A stretch of DNA of 64,000 nucleotides from Candidatus Omnitrophota bacterium (GCA_022703585.1 JAKLDJ010000001.1:246891-310890), one strand, 5' to 3'. Shown: positions 421 to 63,400, counted from the first letter of the stretch. The notes: generated by a model from the letters alone, not told the origin. Program-made: numbers and translations.

Positions 421-3400
421 GCAAGTTCTCTTTGAAGTGAAGCGCTCAGCTGTTTGTATTTTTCGGAATCAATGAAAAACAGGCAACCCACTCTTATAAA
501 ATAGTAGCCCTGGTTTCTTTGATAGGGCCTGCCCCAGCCATCGTGCTCTATTCTATGCAATTTTTCCGGCAATAAACCACCCCAACGTTCCCGGACAATA
601 CGACGAGGCCCAAATTGCAACAGGCTGTCAACGGCATCGAGATTATACATCTTCTCGTAACGAACATGTTCAAGGCCCAATTCATCAACAATCTTTTGGC
701 TTAAATTCCGGCAGGTTGATTCTTCAAGATGAACGGCTATTGGAGATTTATTGTCAAATGGAGTTGGGGCATACGCGGATTTCTGCTGAAGAAATTGCCC
801 GGCAGAACAACTTAATGGCCGCTGTGCCGGAGGGCCTCTGCTAACCCAATCAGAAAATGCATTTTCTATTCTAACAAAAACCTTTAATTGCCACGCCAAG
901 GTTAATATCGCCATCCAGGCAAAAATGACTATAAGCGGCAGATACGCGTTTAAATCGTCTTTCTTGTCGCCGAGCTTAGGTTTAAGCGACTCCCTGGTCT
1001 GAGGCTGCGAGGTGGCGGACGGTTTTTCCCAATTCGGAAACAGAGGCCGAATCCGGGTAATCCTTTTTTCCTCCAATGATAAGAAATAGAGCCCAAACAT
1101 TACCTCCACGCTACCCATTAGCCTGGAATCGGCGGACTGGACAACCGCCCTCAAAAACAAGTTCTTGATAGAAGTACCTGTTTGATCAACGATCGTTAAT
1201 GGACTGCCCTCGCTATTAATAAAATCTTCCATCAAGGCTTTTAGAATCTTGCGCAGCTGACGGTTAGGATTAAACCTAAGATCTTGAAGATATCTTTTCT
1301 GGAGGGCTAATTTTTCTTCATGTGTCCATTCTCTGATGTATGGCATAATCACGGAATCTATTTGGTCCGGAGGTGTAAATAAAAGCACAATAAAGTCCGT
1401 CACAACTTCGTGAATTAGAAGTCGACTACTGGCTAAATATCCGGCCCTTAGATAGACAAAACCCGCACCCAGGGCATGAACTGTTTCATGCAATAAAGCT
1501 CCATGCGGATCAAAAGAATGGACATCGACGACAACGACCCCTTTTACGTCTAAAGGAATTCCCAAGAATTCTAATAGTTGTTGCAGTGATATACCAAGGG
1601 CTCGGGCGCTATCCTCAAAATCACCCCTCGATATCCAACGACCATCCCAATCCATTCTCTCGGTAAGATAATCTTTGTCTGCTGGAGTGAACGCTTCTGC
1701 GGAAATAACTTTTCTCAAATAAGAATGCTCCTTGCTTCTGGAGCCGCTTTCATCAGATGCTAATAAGAACGCAAACAACGGATCCCCGAATTTAACATTC
1801 AGGAAATAGGGAATACCTTCCCGCGATAAAAGCGCAGTAATATCTCTTACCGGCGGTAAACCTTTTGTTTCGGGGAAATCGGAGAAATCTTCCCTGTCCA
1901 CGCCTTTCGTCATCCCTGATAAGGCAAACGGCAGCATCATCAGCGGCCATGAAGCAAAGGGCAGCGCGAAGCAGCCGAGGGCATCATCCTTTTCTCCCGA
2001 AGGTATAAAATTAGGTTTCGTTACATTTCGGTCTAAAACTTCTCTTCGAAATTGTTGAATAACAGGCAACTCATTGATCCAGGCAGACGCGTCGGCTAAA
2101 TTATCAAGAACTTCATTCACTTCGCCGACATATCCGTCGGGGATTTGGCTGTAGATTTGCGGCGGCTCTTGACTATCATCTAAGTAAAAATAATCAACGC
2201 CCGGAACAAGAAAATTTTCATCGACGTTAACATCGATGGTGCGAACACCATAACTCATTATTTCCGTAGTTATAGCCTGGGGAGGGATGATCCAAACTTT
2301 GCCGGGAGCAGCGACAAACATATATTGGACTTTGCGATTTTGCGATACAACACGATACCTTCTTACTTTCCTTCCGTATAATTCGGTTAATCCGCTCCTG
2401 TCTGTGCTTATTTCAACGATGCCTCTGCTAAAATCCGGTTCAAAACCATACACAAATTTTCCGGATGCAGGATCATTTTTCCTTGTAAAATAAGCGATTC
2501 TCCGGCCATGGTTAATAAGATTACGCCCGGATGCTCTCGCTTTTTGTCTTGGAGCAACAAAATCTCGATAAGGACCGATGCGATGATAGGGTGCCCTGCG
2601 CACAACCAAGCTAACAGCGGCAGCATCATGCCTGGGTCTTTTAACCTTTAAGTTAATCGCATCAAGGGCCGACTGAATTTCAAGAGGCAAATTCGTTGTC
2701 TCTTCCATCGAGACATACAGCACTTCCCCATTTTCATGAATAATCTTAAGATCTCCTTTGCCAAACCATTCATTATTTCCGTTTGAGCCGTGATGATGGG
2801 AGGCTGATCGCCACGCAAGAGAATAATCTTTGTAAAATAAACGCGGGTAAATAACCTGTTTACCGGTGGCAGGATGCCTCTCTAGAACATAGGCGACAAA
2901 CATTATTTCATCATCATCGAGCAGGGTATTGGTCAGATAATACGTCGTAGTGAAAAGCTGTATTTTATATTTTGGTGTATAGCCCCGCGATAATAAGCTT
3001 AAAGGATCATTTTTAGCTTTTCCAACGGGTTTTATCTCTACGCCGTTTTCAATAAGTTTTCTAAATTCGTATTCCACTTGTCGGGGGGTCATGTTTGAAG
3101 GACGAACCTTGCGTACAATCCGCGCGGCGGGTTGAGCCCTCTTTTTTCCATCAGTCGAATTATCTTTTACCATCCCCCCCACCGACAGGAAAACCGGCAA
3201 CAACATCAGCGGCCCGGCCTCGACGAGGCTCAAAAGGCCTGCGAAGGCCGAGGCGGGCAACAAAACCAAAGACCAAAGACCAAAGACCGCGCTCAAATCC
3301 GCCAGCGACCAGAAGGTAAAGAACAAGATAACGCAACTCATCTCGTCTTGTTGGGTATGCTCAAAGCTGCCGTGTGCCAATTTTATTTTAGCGGCACGCA

Positions 3401-6400
3401 CTTTAAACAGCGTTTGGTCTAAAATCCCGTTGTCCGTGAATGAAAAACAGGGAGTGGCCGTATCGCTATCAACAAAAAGCCTCTTGGCCCTTCCGCCTAA
3501 ACCTAGCTCGACGACCGCATCGGCCCTTAGGGCATCCGATAACCTTACCATTTCGCTTGAATACGCTGGCCTGTTAATTGTATCCAGAATACCTTCAATA
3601 ACATCATGGCTCGTCCTTAGATACCCTGTGTTGTTATTGGATACGATAGGCACCCATGGATCCCGGACTTCAATATTTCGACCGATAAAATCCTTCACGG
3701 CCAGACGTAGGTGGGTCCATTTCCTGGAATGAGAAGAAAATCTATTGTTCCTCAATAATAGCTTGGCCTTGATCCCCATCTCGCCAGAATGGGTAACCAT
3801 AAACTCTTCAAAATCGCCTAAGGTGGCATCGTCGACAAAAACCTTGCATCGGGGTACCGACCCAGCAGAATAAAATTTAAACACCTCAACGGCATCGGAA
3901 AATCTGCGCTCTAAAATACGTACCGCTTCATGGGTTCTCTCGCCATCCAGAACAAAGATATGATTCAGTCCGCGCGCAGCAGGGCTCTTTGCCCCTTCGG
4001 TAAAGATATAGCGTTCCAATCTTACCCCGTCTCCGATAGAAATCGCGCCACTGGCAATGGCCGAAGTTACTGACCCGAGGCTTTCTCCGGCAAATGCCTT
4101 GAATGCAAACGGAATTCCTTCTTTCTTGACAACTGCTTCAAAATAAGCTTTTAACGCCAAATTGATCACCGTAAGAGCTACGCTTAAAAAGCTCGGCCTT
4201 CTGGAATGGTCCGAAGGGATATTCCTGCTATTAATGAATAGTTTGGCCGGGTCAGGTCGGCCCTTATCATCTTTAAACCCTAAGGCCTCGGCAGCCGCTT
4301 TATAGAGAGATTGTATTTCGAGTATTCCCGTGTCATACAAAACACTGCCTACTCTTCCATAGGCGCCCACGCTACGAAAGCTCTGGAAGAGTCCTATTAA
4401 CTGAAGCTGAATATTACTACCTCTGTCTTCCCCGCCTACTATCCCCGCCAACGGCACCAAGGCCAAAGGCCAAAGACTAAAGACCAAACTAAGACCAGCC
4501 AGCGGCACAAACGCACCGAGACGGCCTGCGTCCGAGGCCTCACTCGGATTTGGCGCACGGTAGAGAATCATGCCCTCGCTACGGATTTGCTCAGGGGACG
4601 TATGCGTTAACCCACGATCATCGCTAAAAGCCACATGCGGCTTAACACCGACCGATTCCTCGCGGGCAAAATAAAGAATCTCATTTTTTAACCGCCAGGC
4701 ATCCATATCCGTGCCGGGCGCATCGATAAAGATATCCGCATCGGCGTCAACGGGTGTCGGCGCGCGGGACAAGCTGCCGAAAAGATACAGGTTGAATTTC
4801 CGCACCTTAACCCGGTCAACGGCTCGCCCGACCAGCCAACGGGCATCGGCAATCCTTGCGTCACGTTCCGAGTCCGTAAGTAACGGGCGCGCTTTCTTGC
4901 CGCCCTCCTTATCTTGCATCATTCTTAACGGTTTGTCTCCCTCAATGCGACGCCTGAGCCCTTGTTCAGCTGCCTCACTGCCAAAGAAATAATACGTGCC
5001 TTCAAGGTCGAGCCCGCCCTGCCCTACAGGCTTTTCCGTCAGGTAAGAAAACGGGGTGATCCTGCCGATATCGGAAGAATAGAAATCAATATACATAGCC
5101 GTTGGTTTTTCGCCGGCACGCTCAAGATAAACAAATCCGTTTTTAATAGTTGCAGTTACGCCTGCTTCATTAAGAAACGCCGCGGCCTTTATCATGGCGA
5201 CGTCAAAAATATCCTGCGCCTGTTCCGGGGTCAAGGTATCGTCGAGGTAAACCCTAAAATCAACATCCTTCCTATTCCAAAACGCCCGGCCGTGGGCTTT
5301 AAAAGATTTCGGGAAACTGCCCTCGGCCTTAACCAATACACTTTTACCACCGGAGGCTTCATAAAACGCCCGCGTTACAATATCAACCACATTGGCACCC
5401 TGCCAGGTGCGCGCCACATCAACATGAAAGATGTTTTCCTTAAGCGTGTACGCCGTCTTTTCTATCCCTAAAAGCTTAATAATTTTTAACGGATCAAAAG
5501 CGGCCAACGGCAGAAAAGCGCCCAAGGATTCATCAAGCACAGTTTTCGCCGCAGCAAATACTTCCTCGGGGGTTAAGCGGTACGGATTCCCTTCCGGAGA
5601 TTTAAGAATGATGCTTCGGTCGGTCCAAGGACGGCATTCTGTCTGATTGGTAGAACCGAAAAGCGAAATAATCTTAGGGGCATTGACCGCCGCAGCCACA
5701 TGCGTCAAGCCGCAATCATTGCCGATGACAATATTCGTACGTTCAAGCACCGCCGCCACAACATGGATAGGCTGATTCGAAACCACCGCAACCTTTTCCG
5801 GATTTTTAACCGCTGATAAGAGTTTTTTATCGAGTCCGTCTTGTTGTTCTTCCGGGCCCAGAAATACGGCAAACTTCATTTGCGGAAATTCATCATGCAT
5901 GAGATTAACCAGCTGGGCAAAATGTTCGACGGGCCAGCGCCGGAGCATAAACCATCTGCCGCAGCCTAAATTCAGGCCAATCAAGGCTTCAGACTCGGTG
6001 ATGCCGTTTTGGGATAAAAATTCCCGGGCTGTTGCCTTTGCCGCGTCCGGAATGGTCAGCTTAACCGACATGTCAAATCCATGGCCGGGATTTACGCTTA
6101 ACGCCCCAAGGCTGGTAAGGCGAAATAGGTCCATATTCGTCTCGGCATGATGGCGATGGGAACTAAATCCTACAGCGTTTTCATGATTTAAAAACGACAG
6201 CCTCGCCTTTGAATCCAGCCCAATGCGGTACCGGGCCAAAAGCGCCCCCAGGATACTATCCATGTAACGCCACCGCGAGGTGACAATGCCCAAATCCGCC
6301 TTTTTAAAGATAAAAGGCATCAGCCTCGACACTTCCCGAAGGCTCTCTTGCAACCTATGCATACGGGGTGAAAATCGGATGACCTCATCAATATACGGTT

Positions 6401-9400
6401 CGTGAGTAAGAATTCCGTTTGAAGAGCCGTTGGCAATAACGGTAATCCGCGCCCGAGGCAATCTTTTCCTTAATTCCTTTAGCATCGGAATAAACAGAAC
6501 CGTGTCGCCCATGCCGTCGTGTAAAAAGACAATAACGGTTCGAGCCGAAGAAAAATCCGCCCGCTGCCGGCCCAGGTATATTCTCGTCAGAAACTTAACC
6601 GGATACAGCCCCAAAAGGACTCCTTCTCTTATAAATTTCTTTGCTGTTCTAAGCAAAATTTTTGAGAGTATTTTCACGGCAAGGACAAAGGCGTATCGCG
6701 CCGACCATTGCTGCTCTTCTTTAACAAGCTTCTCGATGCGCCATTCAATAGGAGAAAGATTTCCGTCCGGCATGCGGTATCCGGGCCCCATTAACAAAGT
6801 CAGGATGCTAAAATATCCGGGCAGGCGGCGGGAGTTAATCTTTTCTCGATAGGCTTCAGTTTCTTCATCCGCCGTAATCGGCCTGGGGCCAAAAAACGAC
6901 ATCTCTCCTTTTATAATATTAAAGATTTGCGGCAATTCATCCAGGCCGGTTAAACGTAAAAACTTTCCTATCAGCCCGCTGCGGTTATCTCTCATGGTGC
7001 GTATTTTATAAACCCTAAACATCGTTCCCTGATATCCGACACGTTCCTGGATAAAGAATCCCGGCTTTTTGAAATCGGAAAGCTTAACGGTGGCCCACAA
7101 AATTCCAATCATCGGCAGAATCACGGGCATCGCAATCCACGGAACCACCCTATCAATCAACTTGATATACCAAAGATTATGAATGAGTTTCCCGGCGTCT
7201 CCGCCTTGCGGATTTTTCTGACGATCTTCTGCTATCATCCCCGTCAGGGACAGAAGAACCAATCCCGGCACCAGGCAGCCGAGCCTATCGGATACGGCGG
7301 AATCACCGCGGCCTTCGCCTTCAGTTTCAGTAATCGGTATTAGGCGCAGCCTTCGTTCCAATAACTGCTCAAGCCGGGCTTGTTGTTTTTCGCGCGAATC
7401 GCTGCGGTCATCGCCAAAGCCGCCCCGCACCCGGACAGTAAGATATTCCCACCCGTTCTCAAAATAAAACGGCGTGTAACCATTACGTATTAAGAAATAA
7501 TTGGCCATAAACCAGGCAAGCCGGTGATGGCCGTCGGCGGTATGGGGAGCAAGCGCCCCGCGTTGCTGCCGGCCGCCGGGAGTAACCGTGTCAAATCCGG
7601 CTAACCCGGGAAAAAGCCTGGGGATATAAGTAAAATTGAAATTTAGAAACGCCTGTCCAAACCCGACGGCCTTATAGATACGCGCTGCCACGCGGATAAC
7701 GATTGCGCGATCGGCATACCGCCGATTCGCCCAGTCAACATACGGCATCCCCGCCACCGACTGCAACCGTTGTCCCCGTATCTCAGCGGTATAGGCAGGA
7801 TTTTCTCTGTCGCCTCTGAATAATTCATACATGTCCATGGCATACTCCCATGTCAGCGGCACCCCGGAGGCAATGAGCCGGTTAAAATAATCGATAGCGG
7901 ATTCAAGCCGCGGCATAATATTAGAAGAAGCCAATGCCGCCGCTCGTTCGGGCTCGAGCCGGGCTTGAGCAATCATTCTCGTTGCCGACCCGGCCTCGAT
8001 GAGGCCAAAAAGCCCTAATAAGGCCGAGGCGGGCAGGAAGGCGGCGATCGTATCGTCGTGGCTTGGTTCTTCATCCACAGCTTGCGGCATTACAGATAAC
8101 ACGCTGCCCGAATCAATATCTTGGGTAAACGAGATATACGCATCGAGTGCGGCGCTATAGGCTTCCGCAACAAAACGTTTTTCATCCAAAGACGGATGAT
8201 TCTCTTCTCCGATCGAAAATAGCCGGCTGCGCATGGATTGCGCAACGGCGCTTTTGCCCTGCAGGAATTCTAACAGTGTCAAGGCAGCAGATATTCTCTT
8301 TGCGGCTTTTCTGAAATGCTCATCCTCTGTTTTCTTTTTAATAAAAGTATTGTTCATCCGTTGATGAGATATAATCAACAACCTCGAAATTTCGGCTATA
8401 TTGTTTTGGAATTGGTTTGGCGTACTAACAAATTCTTTACCCCACACAACAAGCTGAGCCTTATTGGTTCGCGTGCGGTGAGAGTTAACAACCCATACCG
8501 GATGGTCTATAATCACACCTTGGGGCACCTCCGGAGTCACATCGCTTTCCAACACTTCCCGGCCTGTTATGATCATACCCATTTTTTGTATTTGCTTTTC
8601 CAGGGTTATATCTTCGGGCAAGGCTAAAACCAGGTGATCTATATCCAAAGCGGTTAAAATTCTCCCCTCAACAACAACCAGAATGTCTAAATCACGAGGG
8701 TGCGCACTATACAGATAGCTTCCGAAAAACGATATATTGACAACTTCGTACCCTAAGGATTGACGAATATATGAGAGTAGGCACGGAACAATCTGCAAGA
8801 GTGATCGAGCCGTTGCAAATACTTTTTCCTGGTGGGGCTTCTTGAGAATTTTAAAAATTCGCATATAATTAAGCTGCTCTAAGAGCAGTTCGTCTGTTGA
8901 TACATCAACATCACGATCGGATAACACCCTCAACGGAAATTCAAATACATAGTCCCGCATCTCGGGAACAGCAAGCTCGGCAATTTTCAATTTATCTGCA
9001 TTAGTCAATTGATTGATTGTGTTACCTTCTGAATAGCTGCGCGGATGATGAAAATCTTCGCTCTCTCCCGCTTGTCGCGGCCCGGCAGCGGACAACTCAC
9101 TCCTTCTTCCATCGCCCTTTTCGTCTCTCGTCATCCCCATGAGTACCATCGGCAGCGCCAGCAGAAAAGCAAACGGCACAAAGGAGCAGGCAAGCTCGCC
9201 GTTGATGTAGGAAGCCACGTCCCGGCCAATCGGCAGGTTAGCACGCACGCGCACCAAATTCCGGAGGTATTCATACGGTACCGGTGCGCTGAAATTATTC
9301 CTAGACCCGATAATACAATCAATGCGCAGGGCTTTCTTATCATACGTTGCTTCGGCTGGGATAATCAGGCCCCTTGGTTCCCGATGGGCAAAAAGCCTGA

Positions 9401-12400
9401 TAAGCCAGGAGAGAGCCGTAGTGTAGTGGCCGTTCGCCCGCGCAAGCACGTCCAGCAATGTTGACGGCCGGCGCAAGACATAACTGCCGTTATGGCTTTG
9501 ATGTTCTAAAATCCATCCCTTAATATTTGCTCCGTCGACAAATACATCGTTGAGGATAACGGCCAGGTGGCTGCCGACGGCACTGCGGGCATCATTCGCC
9601 CAGTTCTTAACACCGAGCACAATCAATCCTCTGATGTCCCGATGGTCCTGGCGCACAACGCGCATCACGCTGCCCCGCGGGTACGCCTGCGAAGAATCGA
9701 TAACGAGCCCCTGATGATTAACAACCACAACATCTGTTAGTCCGGCGTGTAGCGCGCGCAGGAAACGCCGTTCCACTTTTTCACACGCAGGAGACACAAT
9801 CTTGAATAACCCTATATCAACAAGCCACATCTTTTCTGCTTCTGAAAACCGTATGCCATAGATACCTGATTTTCTATATAACGGGATTGGCTGCAGTTGC
9901 ACCGCACCCTGGGCTTTCCCGACGCCATCTCGCACCATCCCCATCATCAGCCCCGTAAAAAAGAACCCGGATCCGAGGAGGCCAAGGGCCGAAACGGACG
10001 TGAACATAAAAGGATTGATAATGCAGCTGACAGATTCGTCGGAGGCAAACGGAACATTTGGCTCAGACAGCCTTTGGACGCCTTTTGAACTATTCAGCTT
10101 GCGAATATGCCTCTTGATTAACAAGACTCTAAGAAAGGTCGGAGAATGAAATAGGTAAGCCCAAAATCCTCTGGATCCTTTGATTATTTTCAGGAATTCG
10201 TACGGATGAGATATATCAAACCCTGCCTCATGCGCAAATTTAATTCCCAAAAAGTCAGCCCTCAACTCAAAATACCATCTGCGTACAACCGAAATAGAAA
10301 CGATGGCGCATCCGATCAAGATCTTATTGACGGAATATTCGTCAAAAAACGTGTTTTCAACAACCGATAAAATCATCAGCTTCATCAGGAAACCGGCAAA
10401 TTCCACGTTCCCCTTTGTGGAAAGCTCGTTTCTCGACTGTCTATCAAGTTTTACTATATGGGCAAAGACCGCGTAAGCCACTCCTTTTGGATCTCGGCTT
10501 TCTAAAGAAACAACATGATGCTTCTCGGTCGTATGGGCAAGTTCGTGCCCCAGGATAAGAGCCCTTGTTGATTGGTGAAGGGTAAAAAATTTATTGTTGA
10601 TAATGATACCCGGCTGACGGAGGAATAATGCCGCGGCATTAACCTTTTTCTGGGAAAATCCTGAAATATTCAACAGGGTGTATTTAAAGCAGTTTAAGCC
10701 CGGATAATGATTGGATGCGGCCCTGATCAGCTCTCCCAACATGTACTTTGTTTCTTGTATTTTGTTCCTCTGCACAGGCACGTAAACAGCTTTGGTGGCG
10801 AATAGATTTCGTGCCCAATATAACCTAATAGCCGCGGAAATAAGACTGATAGCAATCATGGCTTTGGTCAAGTCTCCAAGCCCGGCTGTACTCAACGAGG
10901 TTTTAAAGATGCCAACAACATAGATGAAGAATCCGGCAATCGCCACCGCTCTTATATTGGATATTACGGAAGGCATCACTTTGTTGTGATGAGCCATCCT
11001 GCTGTAAATGATCTTGAATGTTTTCAGGGCCGCCGCTGCCAAGATGACATTTCTCAAGAAGACATCATTCCAAATCAAACCAATCCACGTTCCTCCTGTC
11101 AAAAGCCCGGCCCCTTCGACTGCGCTCAGGGCGAGCCCGATGAGGCCAAAAAGCCCTAATAAGGCCGAGGCGGGCAGGAAGGCGGCGACCGAATCACCGT
11201 CATCACCGGCCGTTGGCGGTAATCGATCTTTACCGGACTTGCCCCCCTGGATAAGGTGCCGTTTGCGCAACTCTGTTAAGGTTTCGCTTCGAGAGCGTTT
11301 AATGAGATAGGTACGAGCAAAAGCCACAACTCCGAGCGTAGCCAAGAAACTCACGAGATATTCAATGACCTGCCGTAATGAACCAGGCGGCTCAACAACG
11401 GCAAGCACCAGGAGGCCGAGGGCAGCCGCAAGAATAACCACGTCACGTTCTGCCCTGATAAGACGCCCTATTTTCACCAGAGACTTGCCCAGGTCAAAAG
11501 TGGCCCATCCCAGGCCGGTAAAAAGAAAGATGAAGATTATTAAATCCGTAAAATCAAGGACTATGCCGCCGCTCCTCATCCAATCGCGCACTCCGCCGAC
11601 AAAGGTAAAATCTAACATACGCGCGAATAAAATACCGCACCCGAGCCCCATCCATAGATGCCATAAACGCTTTTTCACATTGATTAAGTTAGCGAGAAGA
11701 TAGGCAGCCCAAAAGTCTGCCAAAATCGTGCCCAGCTCAAGCATCTGCGCCTTGTCCCCATAGTGAACAAGATTCTCTAACGAGATATTGCCGGTCAGAA
11801 TATCGTAAAAGCGGCCTATGGCTGTTTTTAAATTTGAAACAAGCGAGAAATCCTGCGCACTGGTCATGTCTCCGGGTATCGAATGAAATGTTTTTTCGGG
11901 AATAGTCAGCCAGACATAAATTTTAAAGGTCCAGTCGATCAGGGAAATGGCAATCATGGGAATCATCAGGTGCGGCTTGGGATGCAGGCGGGACAACAAA
12001 CGCTGCGGCGGCCCGTCCGCCAGAAAATCTGTCGAGACAGGTCTCGCCCCGACAGTATGTCGGGGCGGACCGCGACGGGTCATCGCCGCATGGGCCATGC
12101 GATTCTTCGAAACCACTGCCGCCCAGGAAATCCCGACAAGACAAACAATCGTCAGCATAAAAGGCCACAGGATAACGGCCGCAAGCTCAGATTCGTCGAC
12201 GGCCGCGGACCCGGGAGGCGCGAAATACTCCGAGAGATGCACGGCGACCGCGTCATGGAAATTGCGCTGCGCGTTCACGGCACGGGCCCATTTTCTAAAA
12301 CGCTCTGTGTAGTCATCGTATGCCAGAAACATGTCGCGTGCTTCGGGGACAGCGTGAGAAAAAGGCAATCCTTGATGTCCCGTTTCTATACAACTGGAAT

Positions 12401-54400: not shown

Positions 54401-57400
54401 CCATGGAGGGAATGCCATAGTCCACTTTAACAGTCACAATTAACTTTTCAGGTGTCACGCGAACCTCAACAAAACGTATGGGTGTACGGTACACATAGGT
54501 AACCTCATTGCCATCACCACTGGGCCCTATTAGTTCGACGGCTGATTCCTTAAGGCCAACATATGCCTTGGAGGCATTAGCGATACCCTGTTCAAATAAT
54601 CCGCGCTGCTCCTTATCAAGCTCTTGGAGTGTCCGGCAATTTTCAATGGTAAATTCAACAGTGGTCGTCTCCCAGTCATACGGTCCGAACAATTGATAGA
54701 CCGGCCATCCTAAGGTGTAATCGGAAGACATAAAGCACCCGACCTCAAAGACTCCTTCGTCGCGTACCGCCAGCTTCTGCCTACGGTTCTTATGGGAGTG
54801 GATGCTAAAGACAACCGTTTCTCTTTCTTTACGCTTGAGAGGCAGGCCGTAGGGCGGGGGATTTAAGTCACGCAAACCAACTGCCTCGCCATACCACATT
54901 TCGCCAATCAAAACTAACGCATCAAACTTTCGGCGCACGCTCGTCTCTAAATCTTGGTACGAGTCGGCTGTTTTGATGGCCAGCTGTTGCTTACGATAAT
55001 AATCACCGAGGGTACGTGCCTTTTCACCGAATTTCTCCTTTATAATGCCGTCGAAATACGGCACCAGGAACTGCACATCCATATCGGTGGCGTCACTGCG
55101 CAGCGTCGGCTCGCTCTTGGCAAAAAGTGTCACCTGAAAACCTAATTCCAAAAGAAGATATGTCTTCCAGAGCACCATCAGAAGTTCGATACCGACATTG
55201 TCGGTCGCAATCGCAACGGCTGCCTGGCCTTTTTGCTGGACGCGCTTTAGAACGGCCAAAAATTCATCGCGATGGTCGACAGCGCTTTCTTCTTTGCCCT
55301 TAATGCCCGCGCCGCGACTGAGATCGTCAGAAATATTTCCGGCGGCAACAGCTTCAAACGAATCGCGATACAGGCTCCAAAGATCCTGGGGCAATGCCGA
55401 CGGCATCGTTTTTATAAATCGCGAGAAAGCCTCTAATCCGTTTTTCAGAAAGGTTCTCTTGTCGCGCGCGTATTGATCACCTCTTAAATACGCCCGGTCA
55501 CGATCTCTCGGGAAATCTTCTATGCCCTTCGTCCCTCCGATAGTTAACGGTCTCTTTTCTTTGAGGGCCTTCCATCCCCAAACGAGATTGCCCAGATGAT
55601 CGAGCATGCGATACAACTCCGTTTGCTCATCTAAGGCAACCCTGCCGAAATTCCAATCGCTCTCGTCGATACGGTCGGGATTATATTTCGCAAGAAACTT
55701 ATCAAGAAAGTCTCTTGTCTCGCCTGATAGATCGACATCTTTGTCAGCCCGCAAATCTCGGGCATAGCTGACAGCATCATACAGGCGATACATATATTGG
55801 GAAAACTTAATCAGATGGTGGTAGGTACGCAAAAGTGCCCCTGACAGCTGATCATCTTCGCGCCGTTCTCTTTTTTGTTTCAAGCTGTCCAATCGATGCC
55901 GAGTCTCTTGCAATTTCTGCTCAAGCCGTATTTCTTCTTTGCGGCGCGCCTCGATCACGTTTGGATCTTCTTCAATGATCTTGCGGCGTTCATATTCAAA
56001 AGGCCAATATTTTTTGAGTACATCAGCCGGATTAATCTTCATCGCAACACCCTGCTCGCGCAAAAATGCAATGGCCACCTCGATCGGAAATCCGACGATG
56101 GTCAGAGGATTACCCTCAACACGATCAACGGTCAAGAAGAAGTCTCTATCCTGAATACCGAATCCACCCGCCTTGCCGTAAAATCTTCCGGCCTGTACAT
56201 AGCGCTGCAACACATCCTGGACAGAAACGCTATCTGCGAGCGTTCGATAAGAGGCAAGGTGTCCGTATCCGTCTTCTCCGGCGAGGCTTTTGAGGATGGC
56301 AAGCTCTTGTTCGCGTAAAAGCTCATCGGCTGCTTTCATGTGCAAGTAGGTCAGCCCGTATCCGAGTCTAACCGTAGCCTCCGCGGTATTGATGATTGCG
56401 ATACCCGTAACGGCCTCGATGCTCTTGCCGCAGAGAGCTTTCAGAATTTCAAGGGGTTTGTTTTTCTGGTGCAGTTTCCCGATAACATTGCCGTCGACGA
56501 GCATTGTCGTATCGCTTGCAATGATGATACCCTGATGCTCGCGGGCAACAGCCCATGCCTTTTGGAGAGCAACGGTCATCATCGCGCTCTTATAGGAGGC
56601 ATCTGTCGGAAGATATTCTTCAATCTCAGCGGGAATAACGCGGTAGTTATCCTTCAATAATAAATCCAGAATCTCTTTTCTGCGCGGCGATTGAGAAGCC
56701 AAAATGACACCGTCACTTTCTGTCTCGCTGACACCGATTCGGCGCAAAATGATACCGAGCGCTTTTTGTGCGCGTTCTCTGTCTTTATCAAGCATCCGGG
56801 CAATCAGGGTCCATGCTTCTTTTTTGTCTTTTGTCAGAGCAGAAAGAACAGTTTCTGCATCAGCCGACGCGTCCTCTTCGGTTGTCATGCCAAGGAAAAT
56901 TGCGAGTACGAAAACAGGCGGCATAAACAGCATAAAGGCCCTCAAAGTACCGTCGGGGCCATTGTCTTCAAGGCTATCCGGACGGTACAGCGCAAATGCC
57001 GCTGCCAAATAATCATCCAGTTCATACAGCGAGGTGTCGCGGCGTTTCACAATGGCCGAAAAGGCTTCAATAATACCAAAGATGTCTGACGGGTAACCAA
57101 AAAGCCTGACATATTCCCGGGTATGGTCGGCAAGCTTGACCGGGCCCAGAGAATAAATCTTCCTTAATAAAGACTCCTGCGGCTTAGGCAAGGACATGAC
57201 TTGTACGATCGCCGTAACCCAGATATTGAGTTTCCCAAAATGTCTTTCCTCTTCGCTGAGGCCCTGGATTTTATCGATTGCCCTGATTTCCGCCAAAATT
57301 TTATTAACCTGGCGGCGCAGTCTTTGGGAGGCCGCTGATTCACCCTCCGCCGTCATGGCGGTGAGAATAGGCAATAGGGAGAATGCGAGCGGCGCGATAA

Positions 57401-60400
57401 AAAGCGTAAAGCTATAAAGGTGTTCGCCGCGGGCATTGAATTCTTCAGCGGTTAATTTACCGTTAAGGTTCAGCCCCTCGACGGATTTCTGCCAGTAGTC
57501 AAATGAATCACCGATGACGGAGCTGTAAACCTTATTGAGTTCGCTCAGGGCGCGGAACAACGCGACAACGTAATTATTGAAACCGACTAAGCGTAAAGAC
57601 CTTAGGATCCTTGAAATCCTTAAGAAATTGTGGTTCGTTTCCGATAACCAGATCTGACGCCGCTCTTCAAATCTCGAAGACGGCTGTATGCGCACCTCAT
57701 CATTTTCAACGCTGTATTCGAACCCGTAGAAATTAAGCATCAGGGCCAGCGACTTGAGCATGTTTTCCCTGAGTAATTCTCCTACGGGCGAGGACTCACG
57801 GAATACCTCTAAAGTTTCTCTCGTAAAGATAGGCCCAACAAACCTGCCTCCCAGACTGACACCATCAAGCCTTATATCCCATTCAAATATTTCAGAACTT
57901 TCTTTGAGAGGAAATAGCAATTGAATGTAGTTATGTTCGGTTTCTAACCGTTCGTCATCGTATCCCATAGCCGAGTCATCACCGTATCCAAAAACCTCAA
58001 AAATATATCTTCCTTTATGGTCAGGCCCGATCCCCTGGTAGAAATCGATCAAGGGTTGATTGATCCCCGTGAAAGGCCATCGCTCTTCCTCCACCGTCAT
58101 GGCGGTTAAGGCCGCAAAAACCATCTGGGCGAAGATGCCGAAGAATATTCCAAGCCCGCTAAATCCATAAATCACTTCAAATTCACCCTTTTGGGCGGTT
58201 TTGCGCACGACCCTACCCTGCAAAGCGGCTTTACCCACGACCCTACCTTGCAAAGTTGTTTTCAAGATAGCGGCCTGTTCGCTACCGGCATTCGCCAGAG
58301 AAAAAGGTTCGCCTGCGGTCACAATCAAGTCCGAGAAAAGATAGGCACCCGGTTTCATCATCGCGATACTTTCACGAAGCTCGTATAATTCTCGGTCGTT
58401 TAGGTAGCGCGTCACATAATTAAGGAAGATCATGTCCGCCTCTTTGATCGCCTCTAATGTTTTCTGCGCCGTAACGTCACCGGTGACGAATTGGACCATC
58501 TGACTGCCGCATATACGCGGCAAGGAGGCTGATAAAAATTCGGCAATCCATGCCTTCATAGCCTGATAGTGCCGACTGACAATGTTATCTTCAATGACTT
58601 CGGGTAAGTGACGATCTTTTCGTTCGTCTAATACATAAATAACATCCTGAGGCTGAATGTCGCTACGGCCAAGAAGCTCTTGGGCCATCGCTACATACCT
58701 GCTATCTTTGTCTATGCCCGTAATACGCACCTGCGGAAGATCTTTTGTCGGGTCATAACGCTCCGGGTAACGTTCAAACTGATGCAAAATAGTGAGGGCA
58801 ATCGATAGGGCTTCATGGCCCTTTGAGCTGCCCAGGGAAAGGACGCGTAACGTTCGTCTGCCTTCTTCGCGGGACTGCTGCACAATTCCCGGCAAACGCT
58901 TTTCCAAAACAATGAACTGGGCCGGCAGCCGGAAAAACGATGTGTGATGTTCTATATCGGGCTTTGCCTCTCCCGTCATCGCCGGCAAGGCCAGAGCCAG
59001 TTGCACAAAAACGCTGAAGAACACACCGAAAATATCAAACCCGCACAAGGTATCAGCTGGAACAGTTTGGGCATCAGTCGCCGAGACCCAAAGAATTTCT
59101 TCGTCAACGTCAAAGCGGTAACCCTTGCCATCCGGCAATGTCAGGCGCGCATCCATATATCGGAGAATACGCGGGATAATACTCTGGCGGCGGTCTTTGT
59201 CCGGCAGAACGGCTGCCACCAAATGAAGCATTTCCTCTCGCGATAGGGTTTCATGAATAAAGCGTATCCGTTGCACCTCCACCGGATAACCCCAGGAGCG
59301 AATCTTGTCTTCGAGATTGGTCGCCCGGCCCTTGGGGACAAAGGAATGCTTTTCCATAAGAGTAGACCGGACAGCGACCTGGTTTCTGGCGGTGGGGATA
59401 TTGCCGTTAAGCACAATCGCCAGGCGCCCGGCTTTATCAATGAGCGGCAATACTTTCTTCTTTAAAAGCAGGTCGCGCTGATCGAAGGGAACAAATAATA
59501 AGGAATGCGACATCACGATCCCGTGCAATTTCTGCCCTCTTAAAACATCAATCTTCTCAAAGAAACTTCCGGTAATAACACTCAGCCCTTCGATCTCTCT
59601 GGTTTTAATCACGGCGGCCCGCCCGGAGTCTTTCTCAATCGCCAGCACTTGATCAAAATGGACAGCAACCCGTTCGGTAATCTCACCGGCACCGGCCCCT
59701 AAATCAAGTAACTTTCGCGGAGACGGCACCCCGGTAAGGAATTTATCAAACCCTTCGGATAGCCGCTGGCCGATACTCCGTTTTTCTACGCTTAATAACC
59801 TCTGGCCTGCCTTGTTCATTTGCTGCCAGTCAAAATATTTAATCGGCTCTTCGCTGCCTTGCGGCTGCCCTATCATCCCCATCATCGCCGGTAACGCCAA
59901 AAGAACAGAGAACGGCAGCACGACCATACCTATTGGCAACAGGGCCGCGAGGCCTGCGTCTCCCGTCTCTTTGATTGGGCCTTGGCTGTTCGTCACACGC
60001 GCCGCAATGCCGCCATTCTGCGCGCGTTGTTCCTGCTGATCGAGCCCAAGAATATAACGGATCGTTGCAATCTGGTCAGGATCGGTAATCCCAACGGTAT
60101 CTTGTGCGTATTGTTCAACCACAAATTCGCGCCCTTGAGGAGCAGTAACCTGCAATTTCTCGGCATGACGATCGATAAATACAAGCACCACCTGAAATCC
60201 GCTGCCATCAATCATCTGCAATGCATCAGCAATCATATAGGCGGCTTTCAGCCGCGCAGCAACCGTTGGCAGGTGCCGATACATGTCGCGCAAGAGGGCA
60301 ATCATGGTAAAATCATGGCTCGGTAGCCGGCTGCGCATAACACGCTCATAATCTTCGCGTTTGACAATCCATGGAATAGAAAGAGTCTCGGCAACCTCCC

Positions 60401-63400
60401 ATGAAACAAAGTTGGCAAGTGCCTCCTTGACTTTCTCGTACAGTCCGGCAATCTCAGTGTATTCATCGTCAGTCAGCCATTGGGAGATTTGCGGAAATTC
60501 CCAAGTATGCGGATAGGCCGGATTTTCACAGAGAAGGTCGCTGAATATTTGCCGTAAGGTAACCCCGCGTGCTTGACGTAATACCTCATCGATCGCGGCA
60601 ACAGCAAACCCATTCTGGTTAATCAAAGCATCCCGGTTGACAAAAATTCCTCGCCATGTCCTCTCCATCAGGTCCCATAATTGTTCGACATATTGATAGG
60701 GAAGTTCCTGTGCCTGTTCTTCTTCCTCAGTCAGCAGCCCTCCGTTTTCTGTTTCTGCGCGGTCAACGGTGATATAGACGCGTTTGTGAATAATCTCAAT
60801 AATGCGCGCAAAAGCGTGAGAGAGCGTTTCACGGTGCGTATGATACGCTTCATTGCGGGCAATGACCGCCTGTGGCGTAAAGAAAACAACACTGCCGATG
60901 CCTTGATCCGGATAGCGGATGAGCATTGAACCCATCGTCTGCCATGTTTCGCGTGGGGCACTTACCTTTGCATCCACACAATTACCGACACTTGAGCGGA
61001 CCATAACCTGCTCACCGGGCGCAAAGAGGCGGCTTTTCTTCTGTGCAATGTCCTCATTAACCGTGCCAAAGCGATATGCCCGGTATATCGTCTCTGCCTT
61101 TATGCGCTCAATAAGATAATCGCCGTGACGGATAACAACAAGCGTATAGTGATTTTGTATGTGAGCCGGCTCAAGGATAGTGACACGCCGACCGGTCAGC
61201 GGCTTGATGCGTTCTCTCATTGAAGTACGGCCACCGTATTGGATATAAGCTTCTTCGCCCTGTTTGAGCGTATAGACAGATTCATCGCGAGTGAACACAG
61301 ACCGCTGATCAATAACAAGCTCAGGCAGTTTAAAGAGGGCAAGCAGGCTGTTGATACGTGCGATCTTCTCAGCGCTAAACTCCTCAAACGATCCATCAAG
61401 TAAGCAACGCAGTTCTCGTGCCGCTGCCTGTTTCCCTCCGTCGTTGGCCACCGCGCCCAGGACACCGGGCAGGGCTAAAATGAGTTGGACGAGAATACTC
61501 ACCAACTCAAGGCCGGGAATGAGAGCGAGCGCGTTACTATTTTCTGCCTCCAGCACTTCCTGTTTAGTCCTGCTCAATTTTCCGTAAACATTTTCGGGAA
61601 TGGATTCAAGCAAGGCAACCACCTCTTCCTGCGGCATGACTTGAGGCGAAGTTAAATTGATATTGACCGTAGCTAACCCTTCGCTTTCAAGCCACTGATT
61701 TATTCTCTCCAGGTGGTCATCGGGCGGTATAAAGGTGCGCATCAGCCTTCTGGCGTCGAGTGTTGCCTGGTTGATTCCCAATCTCTCTAAATCTTCAGAA
61801 TCCTGCGGGTCAACGACCAAACCAAAATCTTCCCAGGCAGTCTGCATTCTCTGCGCCTTGGTTAATGCCTTTTGGCCGTCGGTACCCCAGAACTGCATCA
61901 AAACGGGATTACCGGTAAATGATTCCGGCAAGGATCCGGCCGTATTCTCTGTAAAACCAAACACCCAGGAATCAATGGTTAACCGTTCGGGGTCTAAGCC
62001 GAAACCGTAGGACTTCAACTTCGGCTCGGTACCCGAAGGACGGAAAAGAATAAACCATCTTCTTCCTTCTTTCTCAAAGATAAACATGACACCGTCGCCG
62101 GTAAATTGAATATCGAGAAGAGAATCAATGTCAACTTTAGGGAAGCGCTGGATGAATACGTCTTTTAACTTCTCCTCTCCTGTCTGATTAAGCCTGGCTT
62201 GATATTCCTGATCAAAGATATCCCTTAAAATGACTTTGGCCTCTGCCAGAGTAAGCTGCTTTCTCATATAGGCAATAACAATGGATAAGTAGGCACCGAA
62301 GATGCGCAGCTTCTTGCCATTCCCCTCGATCTCTTTTCGCTTTGCTTCTTCCGAAGTTCCCGGCAAGCTCAAGGCATTATCAAAACGGATATCGATCGGC
62401 GTGTCGATCTCATCACGCGCGTAGATCTCTTCAAGATAAACGGCTAAATCAACATCGCCTTTTTCTCTCTGCAATTTAGAGATCAGGGCCAAGGATAAGA
62501 ATATGGATTCAGTGGCGCTCTTTTCTCTTTCGGCCAGAAAAGAATTGCCCAAAAGATCCTGGAAGCTGTAGGTAATGCCGGTGATGATCCCGCCGCTTTC
62601 TTCCCAGGCAGCTATAATAATAGGGTCGGGCCCGATGTTAACGTCTTTGCCGCTGGCGTCGGTAATCACAACGTCTTCGCCGGGGAATTGCCTCATCACG
62701 CCTTCAGCGCGGTACATCACATTAGCCAATTTGGCAAAGCCAACGGCCGTGTTGATGACCTCTATTCTGTAGCCTTCAGCCTTGCGCTTTTCTGCCCATT
62801 TATCAACGGCCGGCGTGGATGCTAACGTTTTTAAGACAACCATGGTTCTGTCTTTGGATACCTTCCCCTGTTTCATTAAGGTCGTGATCCGCTCGAAATT
62901 CATCTCGTGCAGGAAATGGAAAAACTTATTGGGAATAAAGACCGCGACCAGCTTTTCGTTGCTGACAACATTATAAATAACGCCCAAAGCTTCCAGCAGA
63001 CTCCTAACCTGAGGAGAATTAACCATAACCTGACTAACATAGAGACGGTCATTATCCATGTCGGTATGCAAAACAATATCGCCGACGGGCATGGCCCGGA
63101 AACGCTCGGGGTAATCGGCTGTGCACAATACCGGGAAATATTTCACAACTTGGCCGTTGGATAAAACTCTCTCTTGCACCTGGGTGCCGTCAGCGCCTAA
63201 ATCATACGGTTCCGGCCTGCCGTTTTTGGGATTCTCGGAAAGCTTTCCGATATTGCCAAAATCAGGCCGTTCCTTCGGATGCATCCAGTCAATCCTTCCC
63301 ACCAGCTCATCCAGGCCCATTTCTCTAAAGAATGCGGTTAATGTCCGATAGGCCGAGCCGTGGGCACAATCGATATGAATCTTGGCGGGACCAATGGCCC

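Follow-up and report, generated by a model that had tools for sequence, protein, structure and literature searches.

A giant minus-strand gene and its recurring motif

We analyzed a stretch of 64,000 nucleotides (nt) from Candidatus Omnitrophota bacterium (GCA_022703585.1, JAKLDJ010000001.1:246891-310890), hereafter called the window, whose minus strand is occupied by part of a single giant gene. Within the encoded multi-enzyme protein, a conserved, oriented, peptide-level cassette with a hydrophobic center recurs at module borders. Reverse-complement frame 2 contains 0 stops in 21,332 codons, compared with 648-1,401 stops in each of the other five frames, and only five short open reading frames (ORFs) were otherwise listed. 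Because Pfam and NCBIfam domains are spread along the whole of this frame, it is genuinely coding. The stop-free frame leaves the window at both ends, and the window is therefore an internal fragment of one minus-strand gene of >64 kb. The strand, the fragmentary nature of the window and the prior publication of this class of giant gene are all absent from a preliminary description of the same DNA.

1-64000, minus strand: internal part of the giant ORF, open at both ends, no stops, Pfam domains throughout the frame

The preliminary description claimed about 40 copies of a recurring motif, and our count of ~43 (30 strong and 13 weak, partial or composite) agrees well with this number. Each cassette is 25-45 amino acids (aa) long and proceeds from an acidic linker through L-x-[A/C]-F-x-P, a hydrophobic helix and L-x-G-M-[T/V] to charged residues, which often comprise one basic residue followed by acidic ones. 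All 43 copies share one N-to-C direction. Their uncharged cores vary in length from 11 to 35 aa (median 21), and neighboring copies are spaced 127-2,155 aa apart. In an alignment of 40 copies, the columns read D/E, L/V, G/A, A/C/S, F/L, aliphatic and Pro, then a variable hydrophobic stretch, then L, G/A, M/A/R, V/T/M/I and acidic residues. Conservation is strongest for the Pro (35/38) and for G/A at the position before M (38/40), with F/L found in 33 of 40 copies, L/V in 34 of 39, and A/C/S before F in 32 of 40. An acidic residue stands two residues ahead of the aliphatic residue in 26 of 39.

A hidden Markov model (HMM) begun from 26 seeds and iterated three times at a threshold of E<0.01 identifies 30 copies in the window. 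No copies result when the same procedure is applied to the reversed sequence or to global or 20-aa local shuffles, and 10-aa local shuffles give 0-1. Likewise, a regular-expression test that pairs an N-terminal box (N-box) with a C-terminal box (C-box), allowing at most one charged residue between them, gave 23 pairs where 0.2-1.2 were expected (maximum 5 in 200 shuffles; reversed sequence 0). In cross-validation, an HMM made from 20 copies retrieves no more than 2-10 of the 20 that were held out, with 0-1 in shuffles, indicating a heterogeneous family in which ~13 of 43 members are weak or degenerate. By these sequence statistics, the copies form a true but heterogeneous family, and the earlier expectation that they would align as one is upheld.

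The flanks differ from the remainder of the protein. The 12 aa upstream of the copies contain 23% D/E and 8% K/R, and the 12 aa downstream contain 21% D/E and 15% K/R, against a background of 12% for each class, as anticipated from the acidic flanks noted previously. Over the 16 aa upstream, the residues D, E, G, S, T and P are enriched and large hydrophobic residues are depleted. A Kyte-Doolittle scan finds ~55 distinct hydrophobic segments in the frame, including the 43 copies. All 37 coordinates given in the preliminary description fall on hydrophobic segments, and only the one near 41050 is a transmembrane (TM)-like segment that does not carry the motif. Seven copies, near positions 21239, 12185, 10034, 7283, 5528, 1982 and 953, are additions to that list, and two of these lie outside the range of 3190-61545 that it had assigned to the motif.

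The copies are listed below in protein order, with aa positions in the giant-frame translation. Those found by the HMM are marked; weak copies fall below its threshold and were placed by hydrophobicity scan and alignment.

61443-61532, minus: weak copy (aa 823-852)
59853-59957, minus: copy (aa 1348-1382), HMM
58971-59051, minus: copy (aa 1650-1676), HMM
58092-58175, minus: copy (aa 1942-1969), HMM
57348-57422, minus: copy (aa 2193-2217), HMM
56880-56939, minus: copy (aa 2354-2373), HMM
50442-50501, minus: copy (aa 4500-4519), HMM
48003-48071, minus: weak copy, N-box only (aa 5310-5332)
47250-47312, minus: copy (aa 5563-5583), HMM
46095-46250, minus: weak composite double copy (aa 5917-5968)
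44877-44960, minus: weak copy (aa 6347-6374)
43716-43775, minus: weak copy (aa 6742-6761)
40800-40883, minus: copy (aa 7706-7733), HMM
39534-39599, minus: weak N-box copy with basic C flank (aa 8134-8155)
39162-39227, minus: copy (aa 8258-8279), HMM
38337-38459, minus: Trp-rich insert variant (aa 8514-8554), HMM, DNA repeat D5/D7
36930-36983, minus: copy (aa 9006-9023), HMM
36117-36176, minus: weak copy (aa 9275-9294)
35118-35168, minus: short copy (aa 9611-9627), HMM
33453-33515, minus: copy (aa 10162-10182), HMM
33096-33161, minus: copy (aa 10280-10301), HMM
30174-30212, minus: copy of 13 uncharged residues only (aa 11263-11275), HMM, sigma module ~10 aa downstream
26844-26930, minus: Trp-rich variant (aa 12357-12385), HMM, DNA repeat D5/D7
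25734-25799, minus: copy (aa 12734-12755), HMM
24702-24764, minus: copy, the reference copy for AlphaFold2 (aa 13079-13099), HMM
23604-23687, minus: variant with lipobox-like C half, LLNGC then PPPP (aa 13438-13465), from scan and alignment
23079-23138, minus: copy ending in EAGP (aa 13621-13640), HMM
22212-22280, minus: copy (aa 13907-13929), HMM
21165-21239, minus: copy (aa 14254-14278), HMM
17643-17711, minus: weak N-box copy with basic C flank (aa 15430-15452)
16758-16814, minus: copy with the best HMM score (aa 15729-15747), HMM
13416-13520, minus: Trp-rich variant (aa 16827-16861), HMM, DNA repeat D5/D7
12108-12185, minus: weak N-box copy with basic C flank (aa 17272-17297)
11118-11192, minus: copy within the M48 membrane region (aa 17603-17627), HMM
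9933-10034, minus: weak copy (aa 17989-18022)
9129-9194, minus: copy (aa 18269-18290), HMM
7998-8051, minus: copy with ~50 nt identical to the copy at 11118-11192 (aa 18650-18667), HMM
7230-7283, minus: copy (aa 18906-18923), HMM
5496-5528, minus: N-box only, hydrophobic core lost (aa 19491-19501), HMM
4431-4520, minus: Trp-rich variant (aa 19827-19856), HMM, DNA repeat D5/D7
3153-3332, minus: composite multi-helix copy (aa 20223-20282), its ...VEAGPLMLLP...GGMVKD part shared with P0001, a metagenomic protein described below
1908-1982, minus: copy (aa 20673-20697), HMM
885-953, minus: weak N-box copy with basic C flank (aa 21016-21038)

The codons for the conserved Gly and Pro residues include all four synonymous forms in roughly background proportions, and folding of the RNA from 8 copies gave z scores from -1.8 to +1.9, with no signal of structure. 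Judged by this free synonymous variation and lack of RNA structure, the motif is conserved at the peptide level. These findings also bear on the idea that the peptide is a by-product of a nucleotide-level element, either an in-frame selfish repeat resembling the Rickettsia palindromic element or an RNA processing site. DNA repeat families do overlap some copies, and a microsatellite-like hexamer run is present in five. However, beyond the variation in synonymous codons and the lack of a stable or shared structure in the folded copies, there is no Rfam match, and every copy lies in one frame and one orientation. We regard this explanation as close to refuted.

The five Trp-rich copies, at 62-78% DNA identity, carry the hexamer-repeat run GACCAAAGACCAAAGACC on the plus strand (families D5 and D7), which could be prone to slippage yet would keep the frame. 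Also, ~50 nt encoding AAFLPASALLGLFGLI are 100% identical between the copies at 7998-8051 and 11118-11192, whereas both flanks are unrelated (family D8). This suggests recent gene conversion or recombination limited to the linker, and the shared patches as a whole point to occasional gene conversion or linker-mediated recombination. One possibility is that the cassette is evolutionary glue, namely a recombination junction through which modules are recruited and shuffled, homogenized by gene conversion and tolerated only as a spacer. Besides the Trp-rich copies and the identical patch, where similarity is lost at once in the flanks, this idea is favored by the fact that related linkers join unrelated modules and that two giant proteins (the present one and P0001) share the motif but almost no modules. 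However, most copies have low DNA identity and varied codons at conserved residues, such that recombination substrates would be rare. Furthermore, a mere spacer would not be expected to retain hydrophobicity, a Pro/Gly frame and acidic flanks in two organisms. We therefore consider this explanation very unlikely.

As a separate observation on the Trp-rich copies, the insert encodes D-[LF]-N-x-VF[SG]LWSLV, is built on the hexamer-repeat run and is located at 3244-3325, 4441-4522, 13438-13519, 26845-26926 and 38353-38455.

Modules between the motif copies

The giant gene encodes no fewer than 33 enzyme and regulator modules of gene size, arranged in series. Cutting the frame at the copies produces 33 pieces, ~20 of which have recognizable domains. 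Seven of the modules between copies are methyltransferases (one DREV-like, two CheR, two Methyltransf_11 and two PrmA/MTS). The other domains are OGFr_N, Maf, ARMT1-like, Dus, NUDIX, HATPase_c, Trypsin_2, M48 (inside a cluster of TM helices), Bac_transf and glycosyltransferase family 9 (GT9), along with two modules of the sigma-70 family and a weak HEAT_2 match. The modules most relevant to the interpretation are as follows.

29490-30143, minus: FliA/WhiG-type sigma module 1, complete (NCBIfam model positions 5-223 of 224)
18261-18920, minus: FliA/WhiG-type sigma module 2, complete (NCBIfam model positions 2-221 of 224)
27206-27614, minus: Trypsin_2 module, with His (TATHVV), Asp (DDIAFL) and Ser (GDSGS) present
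10190-10658, minus: Peptidase_M48 module with HELAH
10812-11666, minus: ordinary TM-helix cluster with alternating basic flanks, adjoining M48

Both sigma modules are divergent, scoring under the NCBIfam cut-offs while matching the model from end to end, and the Dus module covers positions 77-312 of 319 of the NCBIfam DusB model. The catalytic residues of the Trypsin_2 and M48 modules are intact. Domain ends lie within a few residues of motif copies. For example, sigma module 1 begins ~10 aa after a copy, CheR begins at residue 5 of its module, and HATPase_c stops ~11 aa ahead of the next copy. The near-complete sigma and DusB matches, together with these borders, indicate that the modules are gene-sized, in keeping with the earlier proposal that the motif delimits enzyme-sized units with unrelated domains.

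The modules are nonetheless not separate genes, because the frame has no internal stops and Shine-Dalgarno (SD)-like sequences are present upstream of 0 of 15 conserved Met codons. The latter result also rules out internal translation starts at the conserved Met as an explanation for its conservation. On both counts the preliminary description was correct, and the term "polyprotein-like," which it applied to this architecture, is apt when used as a description. Domain scans of the window's 21,332 aa gave no glycoside hydrolase domain and no SecA_DEAD, C39 or S8 domain, although SecA could lie outside the window. Three unannotated modules had no match in a phmmer search of the Protein Data Bank (PDB).

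Several features of individual modules were recorded. A match to OGFr_N, the conserved region of the opioid growth factor receptor, lies at 57476-57959 (E 1.6e-18) of this bacterial giant protein. The PglC-like Bac_transf module starts with its own Pro-containing hydrophobic segment, VVPWIAMPVILPMIGILWATVKLS (7076-7160, aa 18947-18974), ~25 aa after a motif copy. Because this type of segment is re-entrant in the PglC-like family, the Bac_transf module would sit at the cytoplasmic face. Finally, the long module upstream of sigma module 2 contains 4-6 imperfect direct repeats at 19027-21118 (aa ~14293-14990), with a period of ~246-273 nt (82-91 aa) and 61-87% DNA identity; the repeats have no Pfam match.

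Proposed membrane association and possible processing

The TM-like segments of the giant protein are not all equivalent, as one class behaves like ordinary spans and the other is the distinct motif family. Around M48 (aa 17444-17729), the helices have basic flanks (+2/+3) on alternating sides, a positive-inside hairpin pattern that places the M48 catalytic domain in the cytoplasm. In contrast, net charge around the motif averages -1.8 upstream and -0.7 downstream, often with one K or R right after G-M-x. Each copy contains two prolines. Crude sums on the Hessa scale are +1 to +2.8 kcal/mol for most copies, which is marginal for insertion, and some uncharged cores comprise just 11-13 residues, too short to span a bilayer. 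From the alignment of 40 copies, AlphaFold2 predicts one straight helix of 17 residues rather than a hairpin, with a predicted local distance difference test (pLDDT) score of 71. This helix starts at the conserved Pro and stops just past the conserved Gly-Met, with L-x-A-A-F-V non-helical, and thus the invariant Pro and Gly have the appearance of helix N- and C-caps. A prediction for a single motif-module-motif sequence was uninformative (pLDDT 50).

An alternative explanation is that the copies are ordinary TM helices, giving ~50 membrane crossings of alternating direction, in line with how DeepTMHMM-type predictions for other giant proteins have been read, and that the motif reflects common descent of duplicated linkers. 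The length (median 21 aa) and hydrophobicity of the cores are TM-like, and four copies (aa 8134, 15430, 17272 and 21016) have a basic C flank resembling that of true anchors. Furthermore, the aa 17603 copy fits a span in the M48 membrane region, duplication or gene conversion is suggested by the repeat families in the DNA, and the literature covered here gives 42-331 predicted TM helices in such proteins. However, the copies point in one direction with acidic residues on both flanks, whereas the true TM helices of this protein alternate and follow the positive-inside pattern. Specific residues are conserved despite free synonymous variation, and the paired prolines, marginal insertion energies and short cores are poorly suited to spanning segments. 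In addition, single copies separate a DREV methyltransferase from a CheR methyltransferase, and Methyltransf_11 from HATPase_c and HATPase_c from a CheR methyltransferase, and one copy adjoins a sigma factor. Strict alternation would therefore place enzymes dependent on S-adenosylmethionine (SAM) or ATP outside the cell, and sigma factors would likewise be extracellular. On balance, we judge this explanation to be unlikely.

We tentatively favor the possibility that the cassette associates weakly with the membrane, in the same manner at every copy, and keeps the modules on one, cytoplasmic, face. A same-side tether is preferred because an alternating topology would put the SAM- and ATP-dependent domains outside. 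In the cassette, a flexible acidic linker and an extended L-x-[A/C]-F-x segment lead to a Pro that appears to cap a short hydrophobic helix. Each copy would enter the cytoplasmic membrane identically, as a monotopic or marginal insertion and not as one of a series of alternating spans, such that successive modules would be pinned to the cytoplasmic face. The outcome would be a string of enzymes at the membrane beside true membrane modules such as the M48 protease and the PglC-like transferase.

Several points weigh against this proposal. The hydrophobicity scales are simple and the Hessa sums crude, acidic flanks are unusual at the cytoplasmic surface of a membrane, and the AlphaFold2 model is of moderate confidence and cannot place the helix in the membrane. 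The aa 17603 copy is most simply a true span paired with the following helix. The likeness among copies may stem in part from gene conversion rather than selection. Also, the published reading of such segments, in the portions of the literature covered here, is that they are ordinary TM helices with many extracellular modules.

A partial analogy for such a tether is provided by the PglC-type re-entrant helix, likewise a Pro-broken hydrophobic segment, which holds a cytoplasmic enzyme at one membrane face without crossing. That helix has ~30 residues, a helix-break-helix form and basic flanks, whereas the motif is shorter, acid-flanked and predicted to form one straight helix.

The cassette may also, or even mainly, be a processing site, although this is speculative and is proposed on the basis of sequence features. 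A doubtful but possible version is that the cassette is cut between [A/C] and F and/or between G and M, converting a giant precursor into ~40 proteins. The enzyme responsible would be the embedded M48 or trypsin-like protease or a separate membrane protease, with the hydrophobic stretch only presenting the site. A small/aliphatic pattern like the (-3,-1) rule occurs at both ends, with L/V (34/39) and A/C/S (32/40) before F and with L and then G/A (38/40) before M. The ends are conserved while the center is highly variable in length, with cores down to 13 residues, and D, E, G, S, T and P abound in the flexible linker upstream. Both embedded proteases have intact catalytic residues (the Trypsin_2 triad and the M48 HExxH), the modules are gene-sized, and the two complete sigma-28-type factors could work with RNA polymerase only once released. 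Cleavage of such giants was also suspected, with no cleavage sites known and no candidate sites offered in the portions covered here, by West-Roberts et al. 2023 (10.1101/2023.11.21.568195).

However, bacteria can co-express proteins without resorting to polyproteins, the motif matches no known protease-recognition or sorting model, and a role as helix N- and C-caps would account for the conserved Pro and Gly just as well. Moreover, the motif HMM is significant in just one other giant protein among 1.84 billion representatives. It is rather doubtful that programmed proteolysis turns a precursor of >21,000 aa into ~40 membrane-tagged or free enzymes and regulators, including the two sigma factors. 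If true, bacteria would have a cellular polyprotein of unprecedented scale, which might be processed only once delivered to a prey or host cell. We also speculate that, under the tether proposal, the cassette would be the likeliest place for any proteolytic release of modules, because it has small residues at the helix ends and an acidic linker, and because the protein contains two proteases and embedded sigma factors.

Of the features of a Sec/signal peptidase I site, the motif has an h-region, a Pro ~4 residues before Gly and an L-x-G end, and its n-region is acidic instead of basic. The motif also has Pro and Gly within its helix, along with small residues at the helix edge, which might suit a rhomboid or other intramembrane protease, and no rhomboid, S2P or CPBP domain is present among the window's domain matches. 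Searches of the motif peptides with sorting-signal, prepilin and lipoprotein models from NCBIfam and Pfam gave no match at E<=10, and comparison of the motif profile with the PDB gave no relevant match at the same threshold.

Candidate signals were rejected on additional grounds. PEP-CTERM, LPXTG and PGF-CTERM signals are ruled out because the motif is internal and repeated and has a downstream charge of -0.7, in agreement with the earlier view that it is not a PEP-CTERM signal. The type IV prepilin signal is ruled out because A/C/S rather than Gly precedes F, Gly lies one position earlier and N_methyl does not match; an acidic residue is located 3-5 positions past the Pro in only ~12 copies. 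A lipobox is ruled out because Cys occurs in 9 of 40 copies, ahead of the hydrophobic region and with L at -2. A single variant departs from this pattern, the one at aa 13438-13465 (23604-23687), whose C half reads ...LALCPVLLNGC followed by AGTAQLPPPP, an internal lipobox-like site with its boundary between LLNGC and AGT.

The motif can also be compared with larger systems. C-terminal sorting is performed by the PEP-CTERM/exosortase, LPXTG/sortase, PGF-CTERM/archaeosortase and GlyGly-CTERM/rhombosortase pairs. Like the motif, each of these signals combines a short signature and a hydrophobic helix, with an invariant Pro at the helix's N edge, and a few window copies (aa 15430, 17272 and 21016) are also followed by a basic cluster. 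However, the motif is internal, occurs ~43-fold, mostly does not have a basic tail and ends with G-M-[T/V] followed by acidic residues.

Viral membrane-threaded polyproteins such as those of flaviviruses are likewise encoded by one ORF with gene-sized units, hydrophobic junctions and an embedded chymotrypsin-fold serine protease. Cleavage is demonstrated for these proteins, whereas for the window protein it is hypothetical. In addition, viral junction helices alternate and carry signal-peptidase or NS3 sites, whereas the window junctions share one oriented, acidic-flanked motif in a protein that is ~10-fold larger and encoded by a cellular genome. Multifunctional autoprocessing RTX (MARTX) toxins are also bacterial giants with unrelated effector enzymes and their own protease, an inositol hexakisphosphate-activated cysteine protease domain that cuts between modules. 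However, their linkers are short and non-hydrophobic, unlike those of the window protein, which has no RTX repeats. In membrane-held sigma factor systems, such as pro-sigma-K with SpoIVFB and the anti-sigma cascades of regulated intramembrane proteolysis, sigma modules similarly adjoin hydrophobic segments, and the window protein also carries membrane and serine proteases. The window sigma modules have no homology to pro-sigma-K prosequences, and their release is hypothetical.

Distribution and relation to Omnitrophota giant proteins

The window shares many characteristics with giant proteins previously reported from Omnitrophota. In the portions covered here, West-Roberts et al. (10.1101/2023.11.21.568195) name such proteins "Archaeovorins," give a size criterion of >90 kb or >30,000 aa, and find a divergent SecA_DEAD in most Archaeovorin-type members. 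The corresponding parts of 10.64898/2026.06.07.730766 describe 147 predicted TM helices in a protein of 147,155 aa and a "multi-enzyme metabolic cluster" class whose Pfam module 1 centers on PF08241 and PF02518. Similarly, 42 TM helices are predicted for a LiM protein of 39,678 aa in the material covered from Seymour et al. 2023 (PMC10066038).

The window likewise contains a single ORF of tens of kb with dozens of TM-like segments at comparable density. It encodes a mosaic of PF08241 methyltransferases, PF02518 HATPase_c, NUDIX, glycosyltransferases, peptidases and weak HEAT, and shows the same poor conservation, scarcity of database relatives and assembly breaks inside the gene. At >=64 kb and 21,332 aa, its size is a minimum given the open ends. 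The numerous TM-like segments (~55 by Kyte-Doolittle) agree with the Archaeovorin definition, as does the domain set, in which a glycoside hydrolase is missing. It differs in having no SecA_DEAD, C39 or S8 domain and in carrying two FliA-type sigma factors and DusB. On the basis of size, density of TM-like segments and domain content, the protein can provisionally be filed among the Omnitrophota giants.

Thus, the giant multi-enzyme architecture is already known, and the conserved motif is the new element. The TM segments of the published giants are described as predictions only, whereas those of the window carry a conserved motif. No conserved motif in TM segments is described in the passages covered from 10.1101/2023.11.21.568195, 10.64898/2026.06.07.730766 and PMC10066038. 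Neither "motif" nor "linker" occurs as a word in 10.64898/2026.06.07.730766, and "motif" appears once in 10.1101/2023.11.21.568195, in a context outside the covered passages.

The motif is a lineage-restricted feature, not a general property of giant proteins, as far as sequence databases indicate. We compared a profile of 32 window copies, with no word filters, against 1.84 billion representative proteins. At this database size a short profile reaches significance only with at least five copies, such that fragmentary relatives would be missed. The single real match is P0001 (7,465 aa, 6 matched stretches, E 5e-8); a second, P0002, was rejected as a low-complexity false match. The well-known giant proteins of public genomes do not score among these representatives, which, together with the single match, is the basis for the restricted distribution.

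P0001 lies at one end of a JGI metagenome contig of 530 kb and represents the C-terminal portion of a larger gene. A near-identical copy (P0003) is found in a second sample, with the assembly broken at the same place. It contains 7-8 clear motif copies, including ESLGCFLPGLIFLPLVGLPVVGMVRR and DDLYGFLLPFALGPLMLLPVAGMMRG, all in the frame of the giant gene and 0 in seven neighboring genes. A composite variant, …VEAGPLM[LF]LP…GMVK, is common to P0001 and window aa 20223-20282. Apart from the motif, P0001 and the window protein have almost nothing in common.

Other searches also returned few relatives. Queries with the window, P0001 and a motif-derived alignment found no close relative of the window in GTDB representative genomes, JGI metagenome contigs or viral contigs, and the window has no megablast match in phage and plasmid collections and 0 matches in Rfam. 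Protein database searches for homologues with a two-module region or the motif alignment returned nothing useful, and a 2,052-aa region returned only a distant GT9 match.

The giant genes of ultra-small, probably predatory bacteria are a recognized puzzle, in that it is not clear whether the product functions as one chain or is cut, or on which side of the membrane its parts reside. Published topology predictions for such giants put modules in implausible places, and according to the authors no cleavage points are known. With a conserved, oriented cassette at module borders, both questions become accessible to experiment. The cassette marks split points for structure prediction and neo-terminus sites for proteomes, and it yields short peptides for tests of membrane insertion and of cleavage by the M48 and trypsin-like proteases. 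The motif, which is not described in the sources covered here, is therefore a testable candidate for tethering or cutting of a giant protein.

Two further observations concern P0001 and its surroundings. In two independent assemblies, P0001 and P0003 (L001 1-32536 and L002 1-32536) both begin at a contig edge, within a motif copy and at almost identical positions, and are followed downstream by two PilZ genes, a GH94 phosphorylase, a PT-HINT/Vint protein and an ABC sugar transporter. In addition, P0001 contains, at aa ~2590-3500, three near-identical D/G-G-[RG]-LLSV[AV]P..W[AV].AILGAGA..YLFL segments, each followed by a basic cluster. These constitute a second repeated TM-like type with a layout like that of a sorting signal, and one of them lies near a short BLAST match of 49% identity to window aa 5220-5285.

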